32,122 nucleotides of DNA, taken from a virus. Lineage: Duplodnaviria > Caudoviricetes. This document shows positions 14,993-29,690 of the stretch, piece by piece. The notes under the pieces are model-generated. The model was not told the origin of the DNA, searched no databases, and was given only the letters and a program-made list of their open reading frames with translations. A program made the translations under genes and the position numbers. Where the stretch lies: positions 1-32,122 of the IMG/VR virus record IMGVR_UViG_3300038379_000713. The stretch is one strand, 5' to 3'. Numbering within the stretch: the stretch's first letter is position 1; each line of letters begins with the position of its first letter.

Positions 14993-15116
14993 CGGACACA
15001 CTCCCCGACAAATCTCACAGGACACCCGCTATCGCGGAAACCATTTGGAGACATCTTGCCAACCTCCTGAGGAAACATGCCACCTGCGACAGTGCAGGGA
15101 GGCGGTGAAAGAAAAT

Positions 15117-15581
15117 TTACAGACGGGGCGGGGGGGTCACGGGACCATCGCGCCGTTTCGACCCCCCCGGGGTCACATCGACGATGGGGCCGTGGGGCCC
15201 CCTCGCGTCGGGGATCGAGATGTTCACCACCAGCGGGCTGCGCTGCGCCCCGGCATCGCCCGCGCCGATCCGGTTGCGATTCAGGACGTCCTTCGCGGCC
15301 TCCAGCGAGACATAGCCGCTCTTGTGGCGGATCAGCTCGTGCAGCCGCTGTGCCGCGAAGGGCGCGGCTTGCGCGAGGATCAAGTCCGTGTGTTCGATCA
15401 AGGCGTTACGGACTTTCGGGAGTCTTATAAGCCGGGAGGCGGTCACATGCGCCGACTTTTGCCCGTATCCTGCGGCTATTGCGGCCTGCGTGCCGTTGCC
15501 GTTGTTCGCTAAATACGCTTCCACGAAGCGTTCCTGCTTAGGCGTCAGCGCCTGGGCGGGTGTCAGCGGAAGGGTTGGCAT
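15117..15581 (-). CDS. terS: Terminase small subunit
   Basis: 'LTPKQERFVEAYL...NGTQAAIAAGY...AHVTASRL...PKV' HTH signature; AAGGA RBS. Confidence 0.9.
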   Translation of the reverse strand: MPTLPLTPAQALTPKQERFVEAYLANNGNGTQAAIAAGYGQKSAHVTASRLIRLPKVRNALIEHTDLILAQAAPFAAQRLHELIRHKSGYVSLEAAKDVLNRNRIGAGDAGAQRSPLVVNISIPDARGPHGPIVDVTPGGSKRRDGPVTPPPRL

Positions 15582-15808
15582 CGGCGTCCTTTGTCGTCTC
15601 GTTTGTGTACACAGGGCGCAGGGGCGGAAACCCCCGTCAATGCACAGACCTAACACTTTGGGCTGCGGCGGATTTCCGCCTTATACCCCGGAGGGGTAAG
15701 GGGGCGCCTCCCGATGCTCCGCATCGGGACCGCGCTCTACTCGCTGCGCTCCCCGAGCCGCTGCGCGTCTCGGCCCTGGCGGGTGACGATCGCTGGCGCG
15801 GCGGCGGC

Positions 15809-16272
15809 TGTCGCCGCCGGCTTCCCCGGTGGGGCGGCGCCTGATCGCGTGTGAGCGGCCCGTTCCGCCCCTGACCGAACCGCCTGGCGCTGCATCCCCG
15901 GGGCCGGCCGGCCTCGGCGGCGGGGTCCGTTCTGCGCCGTCGGCCCACGGTATAGGGGGCCGTTGTGCTTCAGACCTGCGCCCGCTCCTGCGCACGCTGC
16001 GCTGCGCTCCGCGCCCTCCGGGTTTGCAAGAACAAAGACGGTTTCCGCTGCGCGGACCCTCCGTCTTTCTTCTTGCAAATGCGCAGGACCGGTCGCGGAC
16101 GGTCACGCACAACGGCCCCCTATACCGTGGGCCGAAGACAACAGGACGCTCGCCGCGTCGGCCGACCAGCCCCTCCAGGGGGTACAGCGAACACGTTTCG
16201 CTCAGGTGCACAACGGGCCGCTCACACGCGATCAGGCGCCGCCCCACCGGGGAAGCAGACTTTTTGGCGACA
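15809..16272. repeat. ~465-nt imperfect nested inverted repeat (rod-like hairpin) in non-coding DNA
   Basis: Perfect 45 bp (15820-15864/16212-16256), perfect 29 bp (15940-15968/16107-16135), 9 bp (15986-15994/16080-16088), 18/19 bp (16023-16041/16061-16079), 7 bp (15809-15815/16266-16272). Confidence 0.95.
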
Positions 16273-16435
16273 ACCCTGTTGTGAACGAAGACCGGGACGA
16301 CGCCCTGCCCCTGACGGGGCCGGGCCGTCCCGATGCCGACATCTCCGCCGGCGCCGCGCTTGCGGCCCGGCCCCCGGCGGCGCCGCCGCCACCGACCAGG
16401 AACACCCTGGGTTTTTGCAAGAGGAGGTAACGACC

Positions 16436-16633
16436 ATGACCAAAGGACAATTCCTGAAGCACGATCTGCACACGGACCCGCGGATCCAGGACCTGCTGGA
16501 CCTTGCCGAGTACGCCGAGGGCCGCGGCGACGACGACGAGGCCGCCTGCGCCCGCGCCGAGATCGCCGCCATCCAGCGCGCGGCCCTGCCGCTGGTGGTC
16601 CAGCTGCCCATCGCGTTCAAGGGGCTGCTGTAA
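16436..16633 (+). CDS. Hypothetical protein, 65 aa (first gene after the hairpin)
   Basis: Strong RBS GAGGAGG; normal codon usage. Confidence 0.75.
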   Translation: MTKGQFLKHDLHTDPRIQDLLDLAEYAEGRGDDDEAACARAEIAAIQRAALPLVVQLPIAFKGLL

Positions 16634-16718
16634 CCGGCATCCCCCGGCGGCGGCCCGCGCCAAGCGCGCGGACCGCCCGCTGCTGTTCCCCATCCGTTCA
16701 CCTTAGGAGGTATCGACC

Positions 16719-17243
16719 ATGTCCACGCACCACCGCGTCGTCGCGCAGCGCGACGCCGCCGACGAAGCCGCCAGCACCATCTGCACGTCTCTCATGGACG
16801 CCCAGGACATCGAGAGCGCGCACCGCGACCGCCAGCAGCGGGCGCAGAAGCTCATCCAGGCCCTGGCCTCGTTGTTCGAGGAGCCAGAGCTGGAGTTCAT
16901 GCAGGAAGCGCTGATCCGCGATCTCTGCTTCGCCGCCGACCGCAACGCCGGATGGGCGAGCGGCCGGCTGCACGAGGTCCTCGGGGAGATCAAGGAAGCC
17001 CTGGAGACCTTCAACGGCTCGGAGATCGCGGACACGCGGCTCCAGCGCAAGAACGACTACGCCGCCCGGCTGGAGTTCCAGCAGGAGGCTTGGCAGGACC
17101 TGCTGGCGGCCGCGCAAGGCGCGCACCGCCAGCTGGTCGGCCGCGACTGGTTGCCGGCGCCGAAGGGCCGGACCGCGGACAAGCGCCTCACCGCGAGCGC
17201 CGCGGACGCGCGCAGCCGCCTGGCCCGCCACGGCATCGCCTGA
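16719..17243 (+). CDS. Helical protein resembling the N-terminal region of alphaproteobacterial plasmid/ICE DUF2493 proteins
   Basis: AGGAGG RBS; 'NGSEI...G.DW.P...LTAS..D.R..LA' pattern (family similarity recalled, not searched). Confidence 0.6.
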   Translation: MSTHHRVVAQRDAADEAASTICTSLMDAQDIESAHRDRQQRAQKLIQALASLFEEPELEFMQEALIRDLCFAADRNAGWASGRLHEVLGEIKEALETFNGSEIADTRLQRKNDYAARLEFQQEAWQDLLAAAQGAHRQLVGRDWLPAPKGRTADKRLTASAADARSRLARHGIA

Positions 17244-17278
17244 CAGTACTGCCGGCGAGCGGCGGCGACGCCGCTCGC

Positions 17279-17307
17279 TTGCAATCCTGCAAGTTTGCAG
17301 CTATCGT
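17279..17307 (+). promoter_or_regulatory. Sigma70-type promoter with palindromic operator in the spacer
   Basis: TTGCAA-17 bp-TATCGT; operator CTGCAAGTTTGCAG at 17287-17300. Confidence 0.75.
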
Positions 17308-17339
17308 GATCTCAATCCTGCATCCCCAGAGAGGCACCC

Positions 17340-17627
17340 ATGCAATTCATCGTGATGGTCACGGTCATCGGCGTTCTCGCCGCCGTCGCCAAGATCGTTG
17401 TCCTGCTGCGCTTGGGCGTGCTGCGCAAGCTTATGGGCTTTCACTTCGCCCTCGACCTCGCCGCCGGCGCCCTGTTCGCCTGGCTGTTCTTCGGCACCCT
17501 GACCGGCATGGTCATCGCCGCCATCGCCGGCCTTGTGTTCAGTCTGTTCATCACCGTCTACCGCCGCGTGGCCGGCTACGAGCGCTTGACGCTGCGCGGC
17601 TGGCGGGACGTGCGTCCCCATGCGTAG
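17340..17627 (+). CDS. Small membrane protein (about 3 hydrophobic segments)
   Basis: 95 aa, strongly hydrophobic; GAGAGG RBS. Confidence 0.75.
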   Translation: MQFIVMVTVIGVLAAVAKIVVLLRLGVLRKLMGFHFALDLAAGALFAWLFFGTLTGMVIAAIAGLVFSLFITVYRRVAGYERLTLRGWRDVRPHA

Positions 17628-17964
17628 CGCCGGTCCGCTCCTGGCCGCCGTCGTCGCCCTGGCCGCGCCGGCGGCCGTGGCCGACGGCGACGAGATCGCC
17701 GCCATTCTGGAAGATCGCCAGGCCATGGTGCGGCTGATGGACCGATTCTGCCGGGCCGCCGAGGACTACCGCGACTGCGCCTTGGAAGCCGTGCACGCAT
17801 CGCTGGCCTTCGACGAGGAAGTCGAGCGCCTGTTCGCCGCGCCGATGGCCGGCCCGGTCTACGCGCGGCGCGTCCTCGACACCTTGTCTTGCGCCGAAGC
17901 GGCGGGCGTTCCCCGCACGCTCGACTTGCCGCTGATGGCGCGATGCCTGGGCACGATTCCCTGA
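17620..17964 (+). CDS. Putative exported protein, 114 aa
   Basis: Signal-peptide-like N-terminus (MRSAGPLLAAVVALAAPAAVA-D), 4 Cys. Confidence 0.6.
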   Translation: MRSAGPLLAAVVALAAPAAVADGDEIAAILEDRQAMVRLMDRFCRAAEDYRDCALEAVHASLAFDEEVERLFAAPMAGPVYARRVLDTLSCAEAAGVPRTLDLPLMARCLGTIP

Positions 17965-17976
17965 TGCCCAGGCGGC

Positions 17977-18017
17977 GCCGCCGCCCGGTGTCGCCTCCGC
18001 CGGGCGGCGGCTTTTTT
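17977..18017 (+). terminator. Intrinsic terminator
   Basis: 12-bp stem GCCGCCGCCCGG/CCGGGCGGCGGC followed by T6. Confidence 0.8.
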
Positions 18018-18031
18018 CCACAGGAGATCTC

Positions 18032-18427
18032 ATGACGCCAGATTCGTCTCCGCCGACCGCCGCGCTCCGGCGCTGGCTCGCGCGCCTGCGCGATCCCGCC
18101 AGCCGGCAGGCGTTCAACAGCCTGTACAGCGGCGACGCCGCCTGCCCGCTGGGTCACGGCGCGCGGGCGTGCGCGGATCTGCTGGGGCTGGTCGTGACAG
18201 ACCGCGGCGCCGTCGATCGCGACGATCCCGCCATCGTCCTGTTGACCTCGCAGATCATCAATCGCTTCGTCGCCATCGGCTTCGACCGGTTCACCTTGCT
18301 GCGCATCCTGCGGCTGAACGACGACCAGCGCCTGTCGCTGGCGCAGACGGCCGACTGGCTCGAACGTCAATGCCGTAAACAGGAGCGGCGGCGATCCGTC
18401 TCCGCCCGGCGCGAGACCGCGCCATGA
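18032..18427 (+). CDS. Phage hypothetical protein, tandem paralog A
   Basis: AGGAG RBS; LRRWL..LRDP.SRQAF..LY...AAC.LG.G...RLNDD..L.L...ADWLE shared with the next ORF. Confidence 0.75.
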   Translation: MTPDSSPPTAALRRWLARLRDPASRQAFNSLYSGDAACPLGHGARACADLLGLVVTDRGAVDRDDPAIVLLTSQIINRFVAIGFDRFTLLRILRLNDDQRLSLAQTADWLERQCRKQERRRSVSARRETAP

Positions 18428-18777
18428 GCGCCCGGTCCCGAATCCTCCGCCGCTGGCTCGGCCAGCTGCGCGATCCGCACAGCCGGCAAGCCTTTCACAG
18501 GCTGTATGACGCCGAGGCGGCCTGCGCCCTCGGCCAGGGCATGTTGGCGTGCCTCGATCTCCTGGGGCTCATCGTGACGGAACGCGGCGTTCTCGACCGG
18601 CGGACGCCGCGGCGGCCGCTGTCGCTGGCGCAGATCGTCGACCGCTTCGTCGCCGCCGGCTTCGACCGCGCGACCGTGGCCGCCGTCATCCGCCTCAACG
18701 ACGACCGGCGCCTGCCGCTGCCGCGCATCGCCGATTGGCTCGAACAGGAAATCCGCAAACAGGAGACCCCCCGATGA
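18424..18777 (+). CDS. Phage hypothetical protein, tandem paralog B
   Basis: ATGA overlap; clear paralog of 18032..18427. Confidence 0.75.
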   Translation: MSARSRILRRWLGQLRDPHSRQAFHRLYDAEAACALGQGMLACLDLLGLIVTERGVLDRRTPRRPLSLAQIVDRFVAAGFDRATVAAVIRLNDDRRLPLPRIADWLEQEIRKQETPR

Positions 18778-18989
18778 TCGTCAGTTTCGGCAAGAGCTTT
18801 GCGTATGCCTTCGTCCGTTCGGCCGCCGGCGTCGCCGCCGTGGCCGCCGCGCCCTACGTGCTCCGGGCGTTGCGGCGGACGCCCGTCCTGTACAACCGCG
18901 CCTGCGTCGTCGTCGCCGACCGCGCCGTCGCCTGGGGCCGCCGCGTCGGCTGCGCCGCCGAAGCCCGCTTGCACGACCGAGGAGAATGA
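18774..18989 (+). CDS. Hypothetical protein, 71 aa
   Basis: AGGAG RBS, ATGA overlap. Confidence 0.55.
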   Translation: MIVSFGKSFAYAFVRSAAGVAAVAAAPYVLRALRRTPVLYNRACVVVADRAVAWGRRVGCAAEARLHDRGE

Positions 18990-18991
18990 CC

Positions 18992-19291
18992 ATGAGCGAA
19001 TTGAGCCTGGCGCTCGCCTGCGCCTTGTCGCTGACGGGCTTGCCGCCGCCGGACGCCCTGCCGGCCTGGGACGCCCGCGCGCTGACGCGCGCCGAATGGG
19101 CCTTGACCAACCGGCCGCACGGCGCCCGCGCCATGTACGACTGGCGGACGCGCACCATCGTGGCCCCGCCCGGCGATTGGCCGGCGCTGGTGCACGAGAT
19201 GGTGCATCACCTGGAGTGCGCCGGCGGCTACCGCTTCAGCGAGCGGCGCGCCGAAGCGGCGGAGATCCGGGCTTACGCCTGCGTCCGCTGA
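18992..19291 (+). CDS. Small HExxH zinc-metallopeptidase-like protein
   Basis: 'ALVHEMVHHLE' plus distal 'ERRAE'; GAGGAG RBS; hydrophobic N-terminus. Confidence 0.7.
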   Translation: MSELSLALACALSLTGLPPPDALPAWDARALTRAEWALTNRPHGARAMYDWRTRTIVAPPGDWPALVHEMVHHLECAGGYRFSERRAEAAEIRAYACVR

Positions 19292-19334
19292 CGCCGGCGT
19301 TGCCGTAACCGTTTTTTGCAGCAAGGAGTGAACC

Positions 19335-20402
19335 ATGAAACAGCAAATGACCGTTCAAGCCCTGGCGGCGGAGGTGCAGCGCCAGAAACACGCCAAGCGC
19401 GATTTCATCGCCACCACCAACAGCCTGACGTTGGTCCAGCCGGGCCCGGCCGGCGGCTGGCGCCTGGAGCTCGACGACGGCGCCGGCGCCATCGAGGCGT
19501 TCGAGCCGACGGGGCACGCGCACCGGCAGATCGGCGACCGCCTACAGATTCCCGTCAAGTATTACGAGCGGATGAAGGCCGACAACCCGCAGCTGCTCGC
19601 CGCCAACGTCAACAGCTGGTTTCGCAACACGCCGGAGCGCCGCATGGTCCGCACGCTCGACGGCCGGGCGCGGGCCTTCTTGTCCGACCGCTACCGCCGC
19701 ATCGACCACTACGATCTCATGGACGCGGTCCTGCCGGTGCTGGCGGAGGCGCCGGACATGCGCATCGAGAGCGCGGCGCTGACGGACACGCATATGTATG
19801 TGAAGGCCTTGTTCCCGACGTTGGAGGGCGAAGTCAGCAAGGGCGACGTCGTGCAATTCGGCGTGTGCATCTCCAATTCGGAGATCGGCGCCGGCGCGGT
19901 CGACATCGCGCCGCTGGTCATGCGCCTGGTCTGCAACAACGGCATGATCCTGCCGGACGCGCGGGTCCGCAAGAACCACGTCGGCCGCGCCATCGGCGGC
20001 GGCGAGGCCTACGAGCTGTTCAGCGACGAGGCGCTGGAGGCCGATGACCGGGCGCTCTTGCTGAAAGTGCGCGACCTCGTGCGCGCGACGACGACCGAGG
20101 ACGGCACGCGGCGGCTGCTGTCGCGCTTGCAGGACGCCGCCGGCGAGCGTTTCGGCGTGTCGCCGGGGGCCCTGGTCGAGGAGCTGTCCAACCAGAACAG
20201 CCTCAGCAAGAGCGAAAGCGATTCGATCATGCTCATGTTGATTGAGGGTCACGATCTCAGCCGGTGGGGCCTGGCGAACGCGGTCACGGCGACGGCCCGC
20301 GTGGTCGAGAGCTATGACCGCGCCACGGCGTTGGAGCGGCTCGGCGGCGCGATCATGGATCGGTGCGCGTTCGACGAGCGGGCGCTCGACAAGGCGGCGT
20401 GA
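19335..20402 (+). CDS. DUF932/DUF945-family protein
   Basis: 'RAFLSDRYRRID', 'ISNSEIG', 'RLVCNNGM', 'WGLANAVT' motifs; AAGGAG RBS. Confidence 0.85.
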   Translation: MKQQMTVQALAAEVQRQKHAKRDFIATTNSLTLVQPGPAGGWRLELDDGAGAIEAFEPTGHAHRQIGDRLQIPVKYYERMKADNPQLLAANVNSWFRNTPERRMVRTLDGRARAFLSDRYRRIDHYDLMDAVLPVLAEAPDMRIESAALTDTHMYVKALFPTLEGEVSKGDVVQFGVCISNSEIGAGAVDIAPLVMRLVCNNGMILPDARVRKNHVGRAIGGGEAYELFSDEALEADDRALLLKVRDLVRATTTEDGTRRLLSRLQDAAGERFGVSPGALVEELSNQNSLSKSESDSIMLMLIEGHDLSRWGLANAVTATARVVESYDRATALERLGGAIMDRCAFDERALDKAA

Positions 20403-20407
20403 CGGCC

Positions 20408-20590
20408 ATGCCCGGCTATCGCGCCGCGCCGTGTCCCTGCAGTCGTCATGACTGCCCGGACTGGCATCTGGAACCCGTCGCGACGACGCACGGCGTCCGC
20501 TTCACGCAGCGGCAGGCCGAGCTCGTCGCGGCTTTTCTCAACGCCTTGCCGGACGACATCGCCGGCGACGACAACGGAGGACGATCATGA
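20408..20590 (+). CDS. Small Cys/His protein, triplicate copy 1
   Basis: YRA.PCPC....C..WH..PVA...GVRFT..QAELVAAFLN. Confidence 0.75.
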   Translation: MPGYRAAPCPCSRHDCPDWHLEPVATTHGVRFTQRQAELVAAFLNALPDDIAGDDNGGRS

Positions 20591-20784
20591 CGCTGCCCCG
20601 GCCTATGTATCGCGCGGTGCCCTGTCCGTGCGGCGACGACGACTGCAAGATGTGGCACGTTCAGCCGGTCGCCGCGACTCAGGGCGTTCGCTTCACGCGA
20701 AAGCAGGCGCACCTCGTGGCGGCGTTTCTCAACAAGTTGCCAACCGACATAACGGCCGACGATGACGCGGGGGCGTCGGCATGA
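20587..20784 (+). CDS. Small Cys/His protein, triplicate copy 2
   Basis: Same motif; GGAGG RBS; ATGA overlap. Confidence 0.78.
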   Translation: MTLPRPMYRAVPCPCGDDDCKMWHVQPVAATQGVRFTRKQAHLVAAFLNKLPTDITADDDAGASA

Positions 20785-21041
20785 GCCGTCCTCTCGACGC
20801 CTATCGCGCGGTGCCCTGTCCGTGCGGACACCGCGCTTGCCGATATTGGCATGTCGCGCCGGTGGCGATGATGGCCGGGGTCTGTTTTACGCGCAAGCAG
20901 GCCGAGCTGGTGGCGGCGCTGTTGAACGCGGCCGCCCGTGGCAGAAGGAGCTTCATGAGACACCATCGGCGACAGAGCGATGACGTGAAGCGAAACACCA
21001 GCCTTGCGCGCAAAGCGCTTCTTGCGAGGAACAGGCCATGA
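20781..21041 (+). CDS. Small Cys/His protein, triplicate copy 3
   Basis: Same motif with a basic C-terminal extension; ATGA overlap. Confidence 0.75.
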   Translation: MSRPLDAYRAVPCPCGHRACRYWHVAPVAMMAGVCFTRKQAELVAALLNAAARGRRSFMRHHRRQSDDVKRNTSLARKALLARNRP

Positions 21042-21274
21042 CGCATTCCGGAGGCAAGCCACACACCAACATCGGCGATCGAGGCCAACGATACGAGATT
21101 CGCGCGACCGGCTATCCGAAACCGGACAAATCGGTAATCGGCTGGGCCACGACGCTGGCCGGTGCCGATGACCTCGCGGCAAGCGTTCGCCGCGCGGCCG
21201 GTTGCGCAAGCGTTGAAATCTTCGACCGACACGACAACAGGGTCGTGAAGACCTTCAAGGCGGAGCGGCCGTGA
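21038..21274 (+). CDS. Hypothetical protein, 78 aa
   Basis: GAGG RBS, ATGA overlap. Confidence 0.6.
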   Translation: MTHSGGKPHTNIGDRGQRYEIRATGYPKPDKSVIGWATTLAGADDLAASVRRAAGCASVEIFDRHDNRVVKTFKAERP

Positions 21275-21355
21275 CGCCCGCCGCCGACGTCGTTTTTCGC
21301 CTGCCATCGCGACCGGCCGGCGATGCCGTGGTGAACGACTGACGCGGAGACGGAC

Positions 21356-21688
21356 ATGAGACGCCATCAACGACACAGCGACGAGGCCAAGCGAAAGATC
21401 GGCGACGCCATCCGCAAGGCCCTGGCGAATCCGGAGGCGCGCGCCCGCATGAGCGCCTCCGCCAAGCGCCAGTGGGCCGATCCGGAGACGCGCGCCCGCA
21501 TCAGAGCGGCCATGCGAAAGGCCTGGTCCGATCCAGCCGTGCGGGCCCGGCTGCGGCCGCAGGGCCTGCCGCCGTTGCCGCCGATGACGCCGGCGCAACG
21601 CCGGCTGTACAAGAAGCTCAGCGCCGTTCTCGGGCGCGACGCCGCGCTGGCGGACGTGTTCCGCGCCGACATCGCCCTGCCCGATTGA
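21356..21688 (+). CDS. Basic repeat protein with NUMOD3-like start (putative DNA binding)
   Basis: 'HSDEAKRKIG' then three 16-aa repeats [LW][AS][ND]P[EA].RAR. Confidence 0.6.
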   Translation: MRRHQRHSDEAKRKIGDAIRKALANPEARARMSASAKRQWADPETRARIRAAMRKAWSDPAVRARLRPQGLPPLPPMTPAQRRLYKKLSAVLGRDAALADVFRADIALPD

Positions 21689-21709
21689 CCATCCTGAAAG
21701 GAGCCTGCC

Positions 21710-23581
21710 ATGGAGTTCATCGGCCTGTCCAAGCTGCGCGTGGCCGCCAGCAACACCCGCAAGACCAACGTCGGCGACGGCGTGAAGGAGCTGGCGGCGT
21801 CAATTCTCGCCCACGGCCTGCTGCACAACCTCGTCGTCGTGCAGAACGGCGTTTATTACGACGTGATCGACGGCCAGCGCCGGCTGCTGGCGTTGCGCAG
21901 CCTCAAGCTCGACGGCGCGACGCCGATTCCCTGCGAGGTCCGGAAGGCCCCGGCCGCCGTTGCCGAGGAGCTGTCGCTGGCCGCCAACGTCGAGCGCGAG
22001 CCCCTGCATCCCATGGACGAATACGAGGCGTTTGCGCGGCTGGCGGCGGCCGGGCAGAGCGTGGCCGACATCGCCGCCCGGTTCGGCGTGGAAACGCGGA
22101 CGGTCGAGCGCCGCATGAAGTTGGGCGAGCTGTGCCCGATGGCGCGCGAGGCCTATCGCGCCGGCGCGCTTGACGCCGTGGCCATCAAGGCGCTGACCCT
22201 GGTCAAGAATCACAAGCAGCAGGAGAAGATTCTGCGCGCCTGCGGCTCCCGCAAGCAGGGGTATGCGGGCTGGCGCATTTCCCGGCTGGCCAAGGAGGAC
22301 AAGATCCGGACCGGCACGCAGTTGTTCGACATCGCCGACTACGAGGCCGCCGGCGGCACCGTGTCGGTCGATCTGTTTTCCGATGACGGCGACGAACTCA
22401 GCTATTTCGACGACGCGGTGCTGTACGACAAGCTTCAGCGCGAGGCCGTCGAGCGCCGCCTGGCCGCGTTCCGGGAGGCCGGCTGGGGCGAGGCCGTGTT
22501 TCACGAGCGCTTTTCGGAGTTCACCCCGGAAGCGCGCCAGTATCCGCCGGTGCACGGCCGCCTCGGCGTCAAGGCCAGGGCGAATGCCTGCATGATGCTG
22601 TATTTCGACGGGGCCGGCAATCTGATCGAGCGGCCGTGCCAGACGCCGGCGCAGGCCGCGGCCGCCGCCAAGGCCGCCAAGGCCGCCAAGGCGGCGGCGA
22701 AGGCGGCGGGCGCCGAGGCCGACGACGCGGACGGCGCGGCCGAGGCCGACGACGCCGGGTCGTCCTATCCGCGCGCCCTCGTCGCCGATCTGGCCCGGCA
22801 GAAAAGCCAGCTGTTGCAACAGCATGTCATCGGCAGCGTGGCCTGGTCGCTGCGCCTGCTGCTGTTCAAGCTGGTGGCGGCCGACGCGCCGGAGGTGGAG
22901 TACGCGCCGCATTGGTCTGTCGCTTCTGCCGGTCCGGATCCCGCGATGCGGTACAGCGCCGGCCTGTGGGACGAGATGCTGACCGTGGCGAAGTGGCTGA
23001 ACTGCCCGCTGGCGCCGGATGCCGTCATTAACGACGAGGAGACGCGCCGGCGCGTCCATCGCTGGCTGTTCTGGCGCACGGGCAGCGGGCAGGCGGCGGC
23101 CGACGCCCGGAAATGGGAGGGCATCGTCGCCATGGGCGACGAGCGGCTGCAGCGCAGCCTGGCGCTCTTGGGCGTGTTGTCCGTTGGCGTCAGCCCGACG
23201 CTGAGCGAGGGCCTGGCCGCCAATGGGGCGGCCGTGGCGCTGAACCTGCAGATCGAGAAGGTTTGGACGCCGAAGGCCGAGTTTTTCGCGCGCCTGTCCA
23301 AGAAGCAAATCGTCGCCATCGCCGACGAGATCGGCGCCAGGAACCACGGCCTCGCCGGGAAGAAGAAAGAGGCGGCCGTGGCGACGATGACGCGAATCTT
23401 CAGGGAGCCGCACGAGTGGGCGCCGACCAACGAGGACTTCCTGCGCAACGTCCGCACCTGGTTGCCGCCGGGCATGGGCTACAACACGCGGGTGGAGCGC
23501 CGGGATGCCGACGACATCGACGTGTTCGACGACGCCGACGACGACGGCGCGGAAATCGAGGGGTCCGGCGCCGATTCCTGA
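21710..23581 (+). CDS. ParB/RepB/Spo0J-family protein, long plasmid/ICE type
   Basis: 'ELAASILAHGLLHNLVV...VIDGQRRLLAL', 'ANVEREPLHPMDEYEAF', HTH 'VADIAARFGV', 'YEAAGG....DLF', C-terminal 'WLPPGM'; 623 aa. Confidence 0.9.
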   Translation: MEFIGLSKLRVAASNTRKTNVGDGVKELAASILAHGLLHNLVVVQNGVYYDVIDGQRRLLALRSLKLDGATPIPCEVRKAPAAVAEELSLAANVEREPLHPMDEYEAFARLAAAGQSVADIAARFGVETRTVERRMKLGELCPMAREAYRAGALDAVAIKALTLVKNHKQQEKILRACGSRKQGYAGWRISRLAKEDKIRTGTQLFDIADYEAAGGTVSVDLFSDDGDELSYFDDAVLYDKLQREAVERRLAAFREAGWGEAVFHERFSEFTPEARQYPPVHGRLGVKARANACMMLYFDGAGNLIERPCQTPAQAAAAAKAAKAAKAAAKAAGAEADDADGAAEADDAGSSYPRALVADLARQKSQLLQQHVIGSVAWSLRLLLFKLVAADAPEVEYAPHWSVASAGPDPAMRYSAGLWDEMLTVAKWLNCPLAPDAVINDEETRRRVHRWLFWRTGSGQAAADARKWEGIVAMGDERLQRSLALLGVLSVGVSPTLSEGLAANGAAVALNLQIEKVWTPKAEFFARLSKKQIVAIADEIGARNHGLAGKKKEAAVATMTRIFREPHEWAPTNEDFLRNVRTWLPPGMGYNTRVERRDADDIDVFDDADDDGAEIEGSGADS

Positions 23582-23682: not shown

Positions 23683-23711
23683 TTTACAAGGCTGCAAATT
23701 TGCAGCATGAG
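23683..23711 (+). promoter_or_regulatory. Operator palindrome within a putative promoter of the cro-like gene
   Basis: Perfect palindrome CTGCAAATTTGCAG at 23692-23705; TTTACA at 23683; ATG at 23718 has no clear RBS (possibly leaderless). Confidence 0.65.
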
Positions 23712-25970: not shown

Positions 25971-25986
25971 CTGCATTATTGCAGGA
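25971..25986. promoter_or_regulatory. Operator palindrome upstream of the repressor gene
   Basis: CTGCATTATTGCAG at 25971-25984; reads TCCTGCAATAATGCAG on the minus strand. Confidence 0.65.
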
Positions 25987-25988
25987 TT

Positions 25989-26022
25989 TGTCCTGGAATT
26001 TGCAGGACAGACCCTTTTTTTT
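25989..26022 (+). terminator. Possible terminator ending the replication operon
   Basis: TGTCCTG/CAGGACA stem with a T8 run 5 nt downstream. Confidence 0.4.
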
Positions 26023-26104
26023 CCGGGCGCGGAAAGGCAGAGTGATTGCGGCGACGTGCAGCTACTCGCTAGGCCGCTATTGGTCTATAATTGGGAGTGA
26101 CAAC

Positions 26105-26749
26105 ATGGCTCGAAAGCCAGGGCTCGAAACCAAGCTGCGGATTGCAAGCTGGATGCGGACGGTGATGGAGCAACGAGGGTGGTCGGCGGAGGAGTGGGCG
26201 CGGCGCGCCGATACCAGCGCCACGAACATCACCCGGATTCTTGCCGATCCAAAAACCGCAAGCCTGCCGACTTCTGCGACGGTGGCAAAGCTGTCGAGGG
26301 TCGCGTCGTCTCAGCCGAACCTGGTTTTCGACCAGGCTACGCAGAAGCTGTTTGAGGGAGTGCCCTTGTTCAACGCGCGTCAGGTCGAGCGCTTTTTGAA
26401 AAGTGATAGGGACATGCAAAAACAATTAGTGCGGGCCTCGCTCGAGGAAGGCCCTGCGATTACGACCATGTACAAGCCGTCGCCGCGGGCGTTCGCTGTG
26501 CGGCTCGATACCGACAGCTTGGAGCTTCGCGGGCTTTACAAGACAGACCTCGTTGTCGTCGAACCGGTCGATGTTGTACCGCCGACTAACGGCAGCATCA
26601 TCATCGCCCAGGTCGCCGGCAAGTTGAGTGCTTACCTTTACCAGCCGCCGCTGCTTGTGCCGCAAAGCCGAAGCGACAACCAGCCGATCGAGATCCGGTC
26701 GGTGGCGATCATCGGGCGCGCCGTTCATCTGGAGCGTCCGCTAGTCTAG
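26105..26749 (+). CDS. CI/LexA-like repressor (HTH plus degenerate S24 domain)
   Basis: N-terminal HTH 'GWSAEEWARRADTSATNITRI'; C-terminal 'AFAVRLDTDSL...DLVVVEP...GSIIIAQV'; GGGAG RBS, TATAAT at 26086. Confidence 0.8.
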   Translation: MARKPGLETKLRIASWMRTVMEQRGWSAEEWARRADTSATNITRILADPKTASLPTSATVAKLSRVASSQPNLVFDQATQKLFEGVPLFNARQVERFLKSDRDMQKQLVRASLEEGPAITTMYKPSPRAFAVRLDTDSLELRGLYKTDLVVVEPVDVVPPTNGSIIIAQVAGKLSAYLYQPPLLVPQSRSDNQPIEIRSVAIIGRAVHLERPLV

Positions 26750-26760
26750 ACCGTCGAGAG

Positions 26761-26794
26761 AAGAACACGCGCCTGGGCCAGGCGCGTTTCTTTT
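26761..26794 (+). terminator. Intrinsic terminator after the repressor
   Basis: ACGCGCCTG/CAGGCGCGT stem followed by TTCTTTT. Confidence 0.75.
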
Positions 26795-26796
26795 GC

Positions 26797-26825
26797 TTGC
26801 GGTCCTGCAAAAATGCAGCTATTGT
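26797..26825 (+). promoter_or_regulatory. Sigma70-type promoter with operator in the spacer (recombination/integration operon)
   Basis: TTGCGG-17 bp-TATTGT; operator CTGCAAAAATGCAG at 26805-26818. Confidence 0.75.
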
Positions 26826-26856: not shown

Positions 26857-27804
26857 ATGATCGCAGCCGTTCCAGCTTCCCCGAAAGTCGACCTGACACC
26901 GCAACAAATCGCCAACCGCGCCAAGGGCATCGGAGGTTCCGACGCCAAGCGCATCATGGACGGCGACGTGCTGGCCTTGTGGGAGGAGAAGACCGGGCGC
27001 CGCGAGCCCGAAGACCTGACCTGGAAGCTGCCGGTGCAGGTCGGCAAATGGACCGAGGGGCTGAACGCCCTGTGGTTCGCGCACGAGACCGGCCTCGCAA
27101 TCGACACCAGCGCCGCCGTCAAGACCGCCACCCTCTACCACCCGGCCTATGCGTTCATGCTGTGCCACCTCGACGGCATCGTGACCGAAAACGGCGTCGC
27201 CAAACTCTGGGAGGCGAAGCATACGAATCCCTTCGAGGACGACACCGTGGTGGTCGATCGGTCGTTCGCCCAGATGCAGCACAACATGGAGTGCGGCGAT
27301 TATCCGGAGGCCTTCCTGTCCGTGATCTACGGGAACAGCAAGTACCGCCACTTCCGCATTGCCCGCGACGCCGATTACATCGGCGAGCTGTTGCAGCGCG
27401 AGGCCGAGTTCTGGCATTGCGTCGAGACCGACACGCCGCCGACGGGAACCATCGTCGAGCCCGTCGTCGCGCCGAAGTTCGAGGAGCTGCGGACTGTCGA
27501 TCTCAGCGCCAACAACATGTGGGGCGACGCCGCCTCGACCTGGTTGCAATACCGCAGCTCCGCCAAGGCCTACGACGCCGCGGAAGCGACGCTCAAGGGG
27601 CTGGTCGAGCCCGACGTCGGGTTTGCCTACGGGAAGGCGTCGTACCAGACAATCTCCAGCGGCAAATCCATGACCGTGCAGACCCGGCTGGTCATCGCCC
27701 GCTCACGCAACAATCGGCTGACGGTGCGCGAGGCGACCGCCAAGGACAAGGCCGCCATCGCCGAACGTGAATTGGAGAGATCCGACAATGTCGCACGCCA
27801 GTGA
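26857..27804 (+). CDS. YqaJ / lambda-exonuclease-family recombination nuclease
   Basis: 'R.KGIGGSDA', 'LWEEKTG', 'CHLDG', 'WEAKHT', 'QMQHNM'. Confidence 0.92.
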   Translation: MIAAVPASPKVDLTPQQIANRAKGIGGSDAKRIMDGDVLALWEEKTGRREPEDLTWKLPVQVGKWTEGLNALWFAHETGLAIDTSAAVKTATLYHPAYAFMLCHLDGIVTENGVAKLWEAKHTNPFEDDTVVVDRSFAQMQHNMECGDYPEAFLSVIYGNSKYRHFRIARDADYIGELLQREAEFWHCVETDTPPTGTIVEPVVAPKFEELRTVDLSANNMWGDAASTWLQYRSSAKAYDAAEATLKGLVEPDVGFAYGKASYQTISSGKSMTVQTRLVIARSRNNRLTVREATAKDKAAIAERELERSDNVARQ

Positions 27805-28973: not shown

Positions 28974-29257
28974 CCTGTGACACCGTCAAATTGCCCAACG
29001 GCGTCATCGCCATCGTGTGCAGCCGCGGCCGACGGCAAAACTGCTCGATGCCGCGCTGCACCCGGCCGGGGACGCTGCTGTGCGATTATCCGGTCGCGGA
29101 AGGCCGCACCTGCGACAGGCGCATGTGCAAGACGCACGCCGCCAAGATCGCGGCGAACAAGCATTACTGTCCGCAACATCAGGTAGGCGCGTCGGACGGC
29201 CGGCCGGGGCCGGCCGCGCCCGACGTCGCCGGGAAAGGAGAGGACCATGTGGAATGA
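28970..29257 (+). CDS. Cys-rich zinc-finger protein
   Basis: 'LCDYP...TCDRRMCKTHA...HYCPQH'. Confidence 0.7.
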   Translation: MTCDTVKLPNGVIAIVCSRGRRQNCSMPRCTRPGTLLCDYPVAEGRTCDRRMCKTHAAKIAANKHYCPQHQVGASDGRPGPAAPDVAGKGEDHVE

Positions 29258-29690
29258 GGCCATCATTTGCGGCTATGCCGGCCGCGACCCCGAGGTGCGC
29301 ACCACGAACGGCGGCGACGCCGTCACGTCGCTGTCCGTCGCGACCACGGACCGCTGGAAGGACAAGGGCACCGGCGAGCCGCGCGAACGCACCGAATGGC
29401 ACCGCATCGTGCTGTTCGGCCGCCTGGCGGAGATCGCCGGCGATTATGTCAAGAAGGGAACGCTGGTCCTTGTCCGCGGGCAGATCCAGACGCGCAAGTG
29501 GACCGATCAGTCCGGCAACGATCGCTATACGACGGAGATCGTCGTCAGCGGCTTCGATGCCAGGCTCAAGATTCTCGGCGGCGGCGGCGACGACGGCGCC
29601 GACGCGCCGGTCGACAGAAAAAGCGTCCGCAAGCGCGCGGCGGCGCCCGCCCAGCCGGCCGCCGAGCTGGACGACGAGATTCCCTTCTGA
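29247..29690 (+). CDS. ssb: Single-stranded DNA-binding protein
   Basis: 'GRDPEVR', 'ERTEWHRIV', 'G.IQTRKWTD', acidic tail LDDEIPF. Confidence 0.97.
   Translation: MWNEAIICGYAGRDPEVRTTNGGDAVTSLSVATTDRWKDKGTGEPRERTEWHRIVLFGRLAEIAGDYVKKGTLVLVRGQIQTRKWTDQSGNDRYTTEIVVSGFDARLKILGGGGDDGADAPVDRKSVRKRAAAPAQPAAELDDEIPF

Follow-up and report, generated by a model that had tools for sequence, protein, structure and literature searches.

Promoters and priming signals that act on single strands have been described in plasmids and in phages that have single-stranded DNA (ssDNA) genomes. To our knowledge, tailed double-stranded DNA (dsDNA) phages are not thought to need them. In T7, the early region is the first to enter, uses ordinary duplex promoters and encodes Ocr. 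Ocr is also mentioned in the available text of PMC11541004. Here, we describe a DNA element in the 32-kb virus record IMGVR_UViG_3300038379_000713, a single contig of 32,122 nt that is referred to below as the window and from which part of the tail region is missing. The element is a structured gap at 15.7-16.4 kb, located between TerS, the gene for the terminase small subunit, and a divergent array of 15 open reading frames (ORFs). We favor, tentatively and at slightly under even confidence, the reading that this gap is a signal acting on ssDNA and that the genes from ORF3 to a long ParB gene are ordinary repressor-controlled early genes from the plasmid establishment pool. The locus is best classed as a new variant: a system of the leading-region kind in an unexpected carrier, a tailed dsDNA phage.

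The closest described systems are the Frpo elements and single-strand priming signals (ssi) of the F and IncI plasmids. Frpo elements occur in the leading regions of these plasmids as classes 1-3 and are defined by reconstituted −35/−10 boxes, as set out in the accessible parts of PMC9849209, PMC11541004 and PMC12672017. The window resembles these regions in having long fold-back DNA on the template strand before establishment-type genes and in sharing the families HerB-like ParB and DUF932, together with ArdC and SSB in related phages. It differs in its carrier and in the stem, which has no reconstituted −35/−10 pair; for this reason, the window hairpin was not classed as Frpo. Most of the window array also lies behind an ordinary promoter candidate. 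The G4 origin, RSF1010 ssiA and the N4 hairpin promoters share with the gap a loop type, GNA mini-hairpins on the primed or transcribed strand (PMC13037366, in its accessible portion), but no dedicated primase or virion polymerase was found. The phage has T7-like head and tail genes, and its clustered small genes may be the first to enter. Unlike T7, it has no Ocr-like match in the window and is temperate with lambdoid control. As far as listings of openly available papers show, elements of this kind have not been described in tailed phages; the Frpo lists in the supplement of PMC11541004 may bear on this point.

The gap contains a long hairpin

The gap is dominated by a rod-like hairpin of 437 nt (15820..16256, minus strand), identified from inverted repeats and folding. 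The repeats are nested: 15820-15882/16194-16256 (63 nt, 92% identity) and 15940-15968/16107-16135 (29 nt, 100%). The 841-nt stretch folded at −316.7 kcal/mol as compared to −212.6 ± 6.4 kcal/mol in 20 shuffles (z = −16). On these grounds, the hairpin that a sequence-only reading had placed before the gene array is real. The arms are identical at only 160 of 232 aligned columns and their gaps are nested, which argues against an assembly duplication. One sequencing run is probably where the window came from, and its contigs cover the region with 0 differences inside the hairpin. Both strands of the gap fold strongly, and the hairpin fold was 19.6 kcal/mol better on the minus strand, the template of the array (5.4 ± 2.9 kcal/mol in shuffles). 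An Rfam search found no family in the gap, the best match (E = 0.27) being located outside it, and the eight blastn matches of the gap to annotated phages were all at chance level.

The template strand carries an excess of mini-hairpins

Related loci were collected using TerL searches, which yielded 40, 1 and 57 loci, the single one being the sole prophage found among genome contigs. Together with the window and Pelagibacter phage EXVC031P Hodr (OQ414635), which is the closest isolate (TerL 49%, capsid 47%), 48 loci had a TerS start; 26 were kept based on the presence of at least 900 nt upstream and the removal of near-duplicates. The gaps of these 26 loci were scanned for cGNAg triloop hairpins with stems of at least 3 bp, with the template strand defined as that of the early genes. 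The template strand contained 43 such mini-hairpins versus 6.9 expected, and the sense strand contained nine versus 5.0 expected. Coding controls gave 4 and 3 versus 3.7 and 4.5 expected, respectively, and the next commonest triloop class numbered 11. Template counts exceeded sense counts in 16 loci and fell below them in four. In the window, five cGNAg hairpins were present versus 0.5 expected, all within 15717-16048 and one of them at the hairpin tip. The middle base was evenly spread (A14, C10, T10, G9), unlike what an RNA UUCG loop on the opposite strand would give. According to the accessible portion of PMC13037366, DNA mini-hairpins with GNA loops greatly exceed RNA hairpins of similar sequence in stability, and they are present at the G4, RSF1010 ssiA and N4 initiation sites.

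A similar bias was seen at the hairpin tip. Module 2 (16000..16105, minus strand), a TTGCAA-bearing stem with a cGNAg apical loop, is homologous to elements ahead of the first gene in relatives. Its stems, parsed in six of eight loci, showed 10 G-T wobbles when read on the template strand versus 0 when read on the sense strand. Overall, the gap looks built to fold as ssDNA on the template strand. A search with module 2 from L117 returned no plasmid match. Separately, the internal-loop motif of module 2 occurs in a plasmid element upstream of DUF2493 (L001:6175-6300), with its halves in swapped order.

Strong folding of both strands would also be expected if the structure acted as RNA, either as a long leader or as an antisense transcript linking early to late transcription. 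In some relatives, moreover, the upstream arm holds a minus-strand −10 that faces TerS and could fire towards it in duplex DNA. We nevertheless give this explanation little credence: the gap contains no Rfam family, the loops belong to the GNA type that is stable in DNA and have an even middle base rather than being only UUCG or GNRA, and the wobble pairs favor the minus strand.

Module 1 is a predicted priming signal

Ahead of the long hairpin lies module 1 (15700..15815, minus strand), a multi-stem piece of approximately 115 nt that matches intergenic plasmid DNA. The matches comprised 131 plasmid records at E ≤ 0.01, of which 27 are conjugative, 56 mobilizable and 48 non-mobilizable. The listed plasmid matches of the gap all correspond to module 1 and are mostly to alphaproteobacterial plasmids. 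In three of the four plasmids that were opened, module 1 lies upstream of DUF2493, a zincin metallopeptidase gene or SprT. In an alignment of 20 copies, 91.7% of cells were paired and covariation was above that of 500/500 shuffles, using a structure drawn from the same sequences. A pattern search returned 42 matches: 16 were judged real by eye, 13 of which were examined, and the other 26 were attributed to chance. Five of the 13 are inovirus-like contigs, and in all five the mini-hairpin strand is the coding strand. The same is true of Pf1, and 15 Pseudomonas phage records, including 12 with the name Pf, gave weak matches (E 2e-3 to 4). As a rule, the coding strand of inoviruses is the packaged strand, so this location points to a priming signal. 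Module 1 is thus predicted to be a single-strand priming signal (ssi/sso) on the minus strand.

In Pf1, the module 1 homolog (L091:1501-1570) overlaps PA0719 at its end, immediately ahead of the gene 5 protein, and is a candidate for the complementary-strand origin in Pf phages. Further copies of module 1 occur in the tailed prophage-like contigs L066, L067, L068, L080 and L086, near Erf, Rad52-type, SSB or integrase genes.

Alternatively, the hairpins might extrude from supercoiled dsDNA after circularization and be read by host enzymes, much as N4 early promoters are read by the N4 virion polymerase, with no need for a long ssDNA stage. N4 promoters use template-strand GNA hairpins, as stated in the accessible portion of PMC13037366, and the perfect 29-bp and 92% 63-bp repeats of the window would suit extrusion. 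However, no match to a virion RNA polymerase family was found among the large virion genes of Hodr that were scanned or in the 831-aa protein of the window. The stems of most relatives are imperfect and bulged, with wobbles on one strand only, and so would make poor cruciforms, and module 1 is also used by phages that package ssDNA. Cruciform extrusion therefore appears unlikely.

The layout recurs in related phages

Returning to the proposal of a signal acting on ssDNA, the layout in which it occurs, TerS followed by a structured gap and divergent establishment-type genes, recurs across the clade of 26 dereplicated loci. Gene families were counted on the strand that diverges from TerS, up to a distance of 7 kb. 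The ORF2 family was present in 16 of the 26 loci, a membrane protein in 15, DUF932 in nine and ArdC in eight; long ParB and SSB were each present in five, and an SLOG protein in three, by the profile used. DUF932 and ArdC never occurred together (0/26). The family assignments were confirmed for examples. The layout is kept in phages ranging from 33% to 69% GC, with gene swaps in one slot. Apart from the named families, most of the small ORFs had no homolog in the related loci.

Hodr illustrates both the conservation and the variation. Like the window, it has TerS, a gap with a hairpin and an ORF2 homolog, which in Hodr is the first gene. Unlike the window, its gap is shorter (337 nt) and has neither module 1 nor a cGNAg hairpin, ArdC follows ORF2 in the place of DUF932, and no long ParB was found. 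In L093, the ORF2-family and SLOG matches lie in one reading frame, corresponding to a fused plasmid-like form, and a ParB match sits among the late genes.

Most of the array follows an ordinary promoter candidate

The sequence-only reading proposed an establishment cassette, next to a probable packaging start, that is expressed immediately on entry. A single 7-kb cassette fired from the hairpin was not supported. ORF2 is followed by a 10-bp hairpin (17255..17278, plus strand), which has no T-run in the window, and then by a promoter candidate, TTGCAA-N17-TATCGT (17279..17307, plus strand), with an operator-like palindrome at 17287-17300 in its spacer; moreover, no fold-back −35/−10 pair was found in the window. 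Based on this arrangement, the structured gap probably controls only ORF1 and ORF2, and the genes from ORF3 onward probably follow an ordinary promoter. By eye, a hairpin with a T-run occurs behind ORF2 in 10 of the 15 loci with sequence. Apart from the window, the promoter pattern after ORF2 was matched in a single, doubtful case, so control at this point may differ in the relatives. A terminator after ORF4 (17977-18011, plus strand) implies that the remaining genes would be reached by read-through.

The palindrome, CTGCAANWWTGCAG, occurs as exact copies at 17287, 23692, 25971 and 26805, with a weaker copy at 15084. Allowing up to two mismatches, nine strand-matches were found versus 1.3 expected. 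Three copies lie in the 17-nt spacers of promoter candidates: those before ORF3, before the cro-like gene and before YqaJ. The second of these candidates (23683..23711, plus strand; palindrome 23692-23705) precedes the cro-like and replication genes. Further downstream, 25971..26825 (plus strand) contains the third operator-like site, the gene for a CI-like repressor (26105-26749, plus strand) and the fourth site, in the promoter of the YqaJ/SSB operon. From their positions, the spacer palindromes are likely operators of the CI-like repressor. In the window, the CI-like gene is co-oriented and follows the replication gene; in relatives, it is divergent and lies between the early region and cro.

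Upstream of ORF1, a strict scan revealed no sigma-70 promoter, although the same scan also missed the candidate at 17279. Across the clade, stems 55-175 nt before the first gene pair −35-like hexamers in 18 of the 26 loci, versus 6.0 in shuffles, and in L007, L112, L145 and Hodr TAnnnT is present on the non-template arm. All three observations speak against the idea that the gap is only a site of lagging-strand priming for rolling-circle (concatemer) replication, whose fold has no control over the genes behind it. Such a role would suit the ssi/sso-like behavior of module 1 and its location near Erf, Rad52 and SSB genes in other tailed prophages, and it would fit the failure of the window in the fold-back promoter test and the normal promoter candidate for ORF3 onward. 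On balance, we consider a role limited to replication quite unlikely.

Two other sets of conserved sites were noted. Upstream of TerS, a motif at 15636..15646 (minus strand; GTCAATGCACA on the plus strand), seen by eye in most relatives, has a TTGAC −35-like hexamer on the minus strand and is likely part of the late promoter. In most relatives, the conserved sequence upstream of TerS reads GTCAAT(G/T)CACA and has a TGCTTTTGCA-like box nearby, suggesting a candidate late promoter and activator site. In L100, L111, L106, L116, L012, L098, L112, L008 and L022, a conserved element ending in A(A/G)CGCA/AGCGAAGG lies directly past the T-run of the terminator behind ORF2, and is possibly an antitermination or processing site.

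A model for the entering end

Phages of the pac type start packaging near TerS and package in the direction of the late genes. If the window phage does likewise, the end that enters first would carry the gap, with the 5′ end of the plus strand outermost. The papers searched by term contained nothing on the packaging mode of the clade. In the model that we propose, the virion DNA would end near TerS and that end would enter first. Resection in the 5′-3′ direction before circularization, by a host nuclease or by the phage YqaJ exonuclease, would remove the plus strand, thereby exposing the minus strand, which is the strand bearing the signature. Priming and rightward transcription of the folded minus strand would then restore the duplex and produce a brief burst of ORF1-2 expression. 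Finally, the HerB-like ParB and DUF932, or ArdC in relatives, would aid establishment. An extension of this model, which is conceivable but rather doubtful, is that the clade, which is widespread, turns resection of the entering end, by the host or by the phage itself, into a switch: once exposed, the template strand would fold, prime its own repair and set off the first genes, with ORF2 as a conserved counter-defense or end-protection protein. This would constitute a phage counterpart of zygotic induction.

Several results weigh against a signal acting on ssDNA. The window hairpin has no −10 at 16-18 nt from the paired −35, and the automated search found TAnnnT at this distance in only four of the 26 loci (L007, L112, L145 and Hodr) versus 1.0-1.7 in shuffles. 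Folding of the whole region favors the template strand beyond shuffles in only 15 of the 26 loci, and these loci are mutually related rather than independent draws, several of them being incomplete. Module 1 is present in only five of the 26, all of which are within the training alignment. An independent scan for module 2 gave 55 matches, of which one was true, a duplicate of a known locus, and it added no new member. L045, a more distant prophage, has ArdC after a short gap with 0 mini-hairpins. Finally, four F leading-region gaps contained 0 cGNAg hairpins, and the signature is thus not a hallmark of Frpo. Among the 55 module 2 pattern matches (L150-L204), many share one conserved, unrelated sequence in other viral contigs.

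If the strand bias reflects function, these phages would pass through a programmed ssDNA state at the start of infection. If true, this would bear on how linear phage DNA survives end-degrading nucleases. Within the clade, the SAR11 phage Hodr provides a cultured system. Compact and covarying, module 1 is common to plasmids, Pf-type inoviruses and tailed phages, and is directly testable as a priming signal. The clade further yields a short list of establishment proteins: the ORF2 family, the membrane protein, DUF932 and ArdC in one slot, and the HerB-like ParB.

Genes of the array

As described from the sequence alone, a co-oriented array with ribosome sites follows the hairpin. It comprises 15 plus-strand ORFs (16436 to 23581), most of which have a GGAG/GAGG ribosome site, and those printed in frame have a third-position GC content (GC3) of 0.72-0.94. 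Three of its genes, encoding the HerB-like ParB, DUF932 and DUF2493-N proteins, are of the co-oriented establishment or anti-defense type that characterizes leading regions. The proposed link to leading regions holds in part, for the gene set and the non-coding DNA: ParB is kin to HerB, module 1 occurs in plasmids, the bias is to the template strand, and ArdC, SLOG and SSB occur in this region of relatives. SSB is not among the 15 ORFs. In the window, it is in the recombination operon (29247-29690), outside 15809..23581. The suggestion that the small ORFs are anti-defense candidates was not supported by family scans, in which none matched a known anti-defense family.

ORF1 (16436..16633, plus strand) encodes an acidic protein of 65 aa that belongs to no family. 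ORF2 (16719..17243, plus strand; 174 aa) encodes a stand-alone, four-helix protein of the DUF2493-N type. It had no match in Pfam, PHROG, NCBIfam or PADLOC; used alone, it found nothing by tblastn of phages and plasmids, by word-indexed protein search or in viral contigs, and atlas leads were all under 0.8. An unindexed search gave 62 proteins at E ≤ 0.001, ORF2 itself counted. A profile of nine clade members aligned to the N-terminus of a plasmid DUF2493 protein (hhalign probability 91, E = 1e-6), and two of the 22 homologs scanned are fused to a YAcAr SLOG domain; the label DUF2493-N-like given to ORF2 was therefore right. ORF2 itself consists of the N-terminal helical domain only, the YAcAr SLOG domain not being detected. 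Its structure was confidently modeled as a four-helix fold, which gave three unnamed viral matches and none in the PDB at E ≤ 0.001. In P0020, a short contig, an ORF2 homolog is fused to a tyrosine integrase-like domain.

ORF3 (17340..17627, plus strand) encodes the 95-aa membrane protein (PHROG 37899) found in 15 of the 26 loci. ORF4-8 (17620..19291, plus strand) encode small proteins of no family, ORF5 and ORF6 being paralogs. ORF8 (18986-19291) has an HExxH metallopeptidase motif and no Pfam match; the motif is reminiscent of the zincin domain in ArdC and of the SprT gene that follows module 1 in a plasmid. The DUF932 gene (19335..20402, plus strand; 355 aa) was confirmed using PF06067 (E = 4e-6), PHROG 1362 (E = 2e-50) and the atlas, and its product is of a subtype common in phages. 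The stretch 20408..21688 (plus strand) contains ORF10-12, which are three tandem Cys-rich paralogs, ORF13 (78 aa) and ORF14 (110 aa), the last having a weak NUMOD3 match below cut-off. The tandem paralogs (20408-21041) share a CxC-x(4-6)-CxxWH motif that is possibly zinc-binding; they have no family and no homolog in related loci.

The last gene of the array encodes a HerB/YfjB-like long ParB of 623 aa (21710..23581, plus strand). Its predicted plasmid type was borne out: ParB_N and HTH_ParB domains were confirmed, and the protein aligned over its length to HerB/YfjB of F (hhalign probability 100, E = 6e-70, 595 columns). The alignment spans four domains, and the CTP Box II arginine and C-terminal dimerization motifs are kept, as judged against ParB2 in the accessible portion of PMC13370423. 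The window protein retains the GQRR box and HTH. In contrast to the F protein, its domain 3 is shortened, approximately 50 of 180 residues being absent, the Box III Glu (Glu130 position) is Ala, and no SSB or PsiB adjoins it. The shortened domain leaves it short of the 80% per-domain cut-off given in the same portion of PMC13370423. That text also reports that HerB reprograms host transcription after conjugation and that there are three cyanophage homologs of HerB, whose significance it leaves unexplained.

ParB matched at least 5000 plasmid records, with 3962 of the listed matches typed as conjugative, versus six phage records, all matched over the N-terminal half. A ParB of plasmid type, together with the integrase and tRNA-Gln end of the window, would suit a module that serves the prophage during conjugative transfer of the lysogen's chromosome, or one that is a relic from a conjugative element. 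Yet the layout is kept from 33% to 69% GC with gene swaps in one slot and is present in Hodr, which was isolated on Pelagibacter, a genus not known to carry conjugative plasmids. No relaxase or transfer family was found among the 45 window proteins scanned, from a contig without part of the tail region, and the neighbors of the module are TerS and TerL. We consider a use in such transfer, or a relic of this kind, improbable.

The phage and its genome

Gene content marks the window phage as a temperate podophage whose head and tail genes are T7-like. Its host is most likely an alphaproteobacterium, to judge from its relatives. The minus strand encodes TerS, TerL, portal, scaffold, capsid, and T7-like tail and internal virion proteins. 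TerS (15117..15581, minus strand; PF03592, E = 1e-16, PHROG 51) heads the late operon and is divergent from the module. The plus strand carries the module, the cro-like and replication genes, the CI-like repressor, the YqaJ exonuclease, SSB and the integrase, and the contig ends with tRNA-Gln. The YqaJ/RecE-like exonuclease (26857..27804, plus strand; PF09588, E = 3e-11, PHROG 434) is a candidate source of 5′-3′ end resection. An annealing-protein identity could not be shown for the 258-aa gene beside it.

HTVC010P was considered as a carrier of the module and ruled out: no ORF2, membrane protein, ArdC, DUF932 or hairpin was found at the ends of its record. It is distant from the window phage, with portal identity of 24%, capsid identity of 27% and no TerL match. 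At the left end of the window, a minus-strand gene contains a 42-nt tandem repeat in three copies (573-698).

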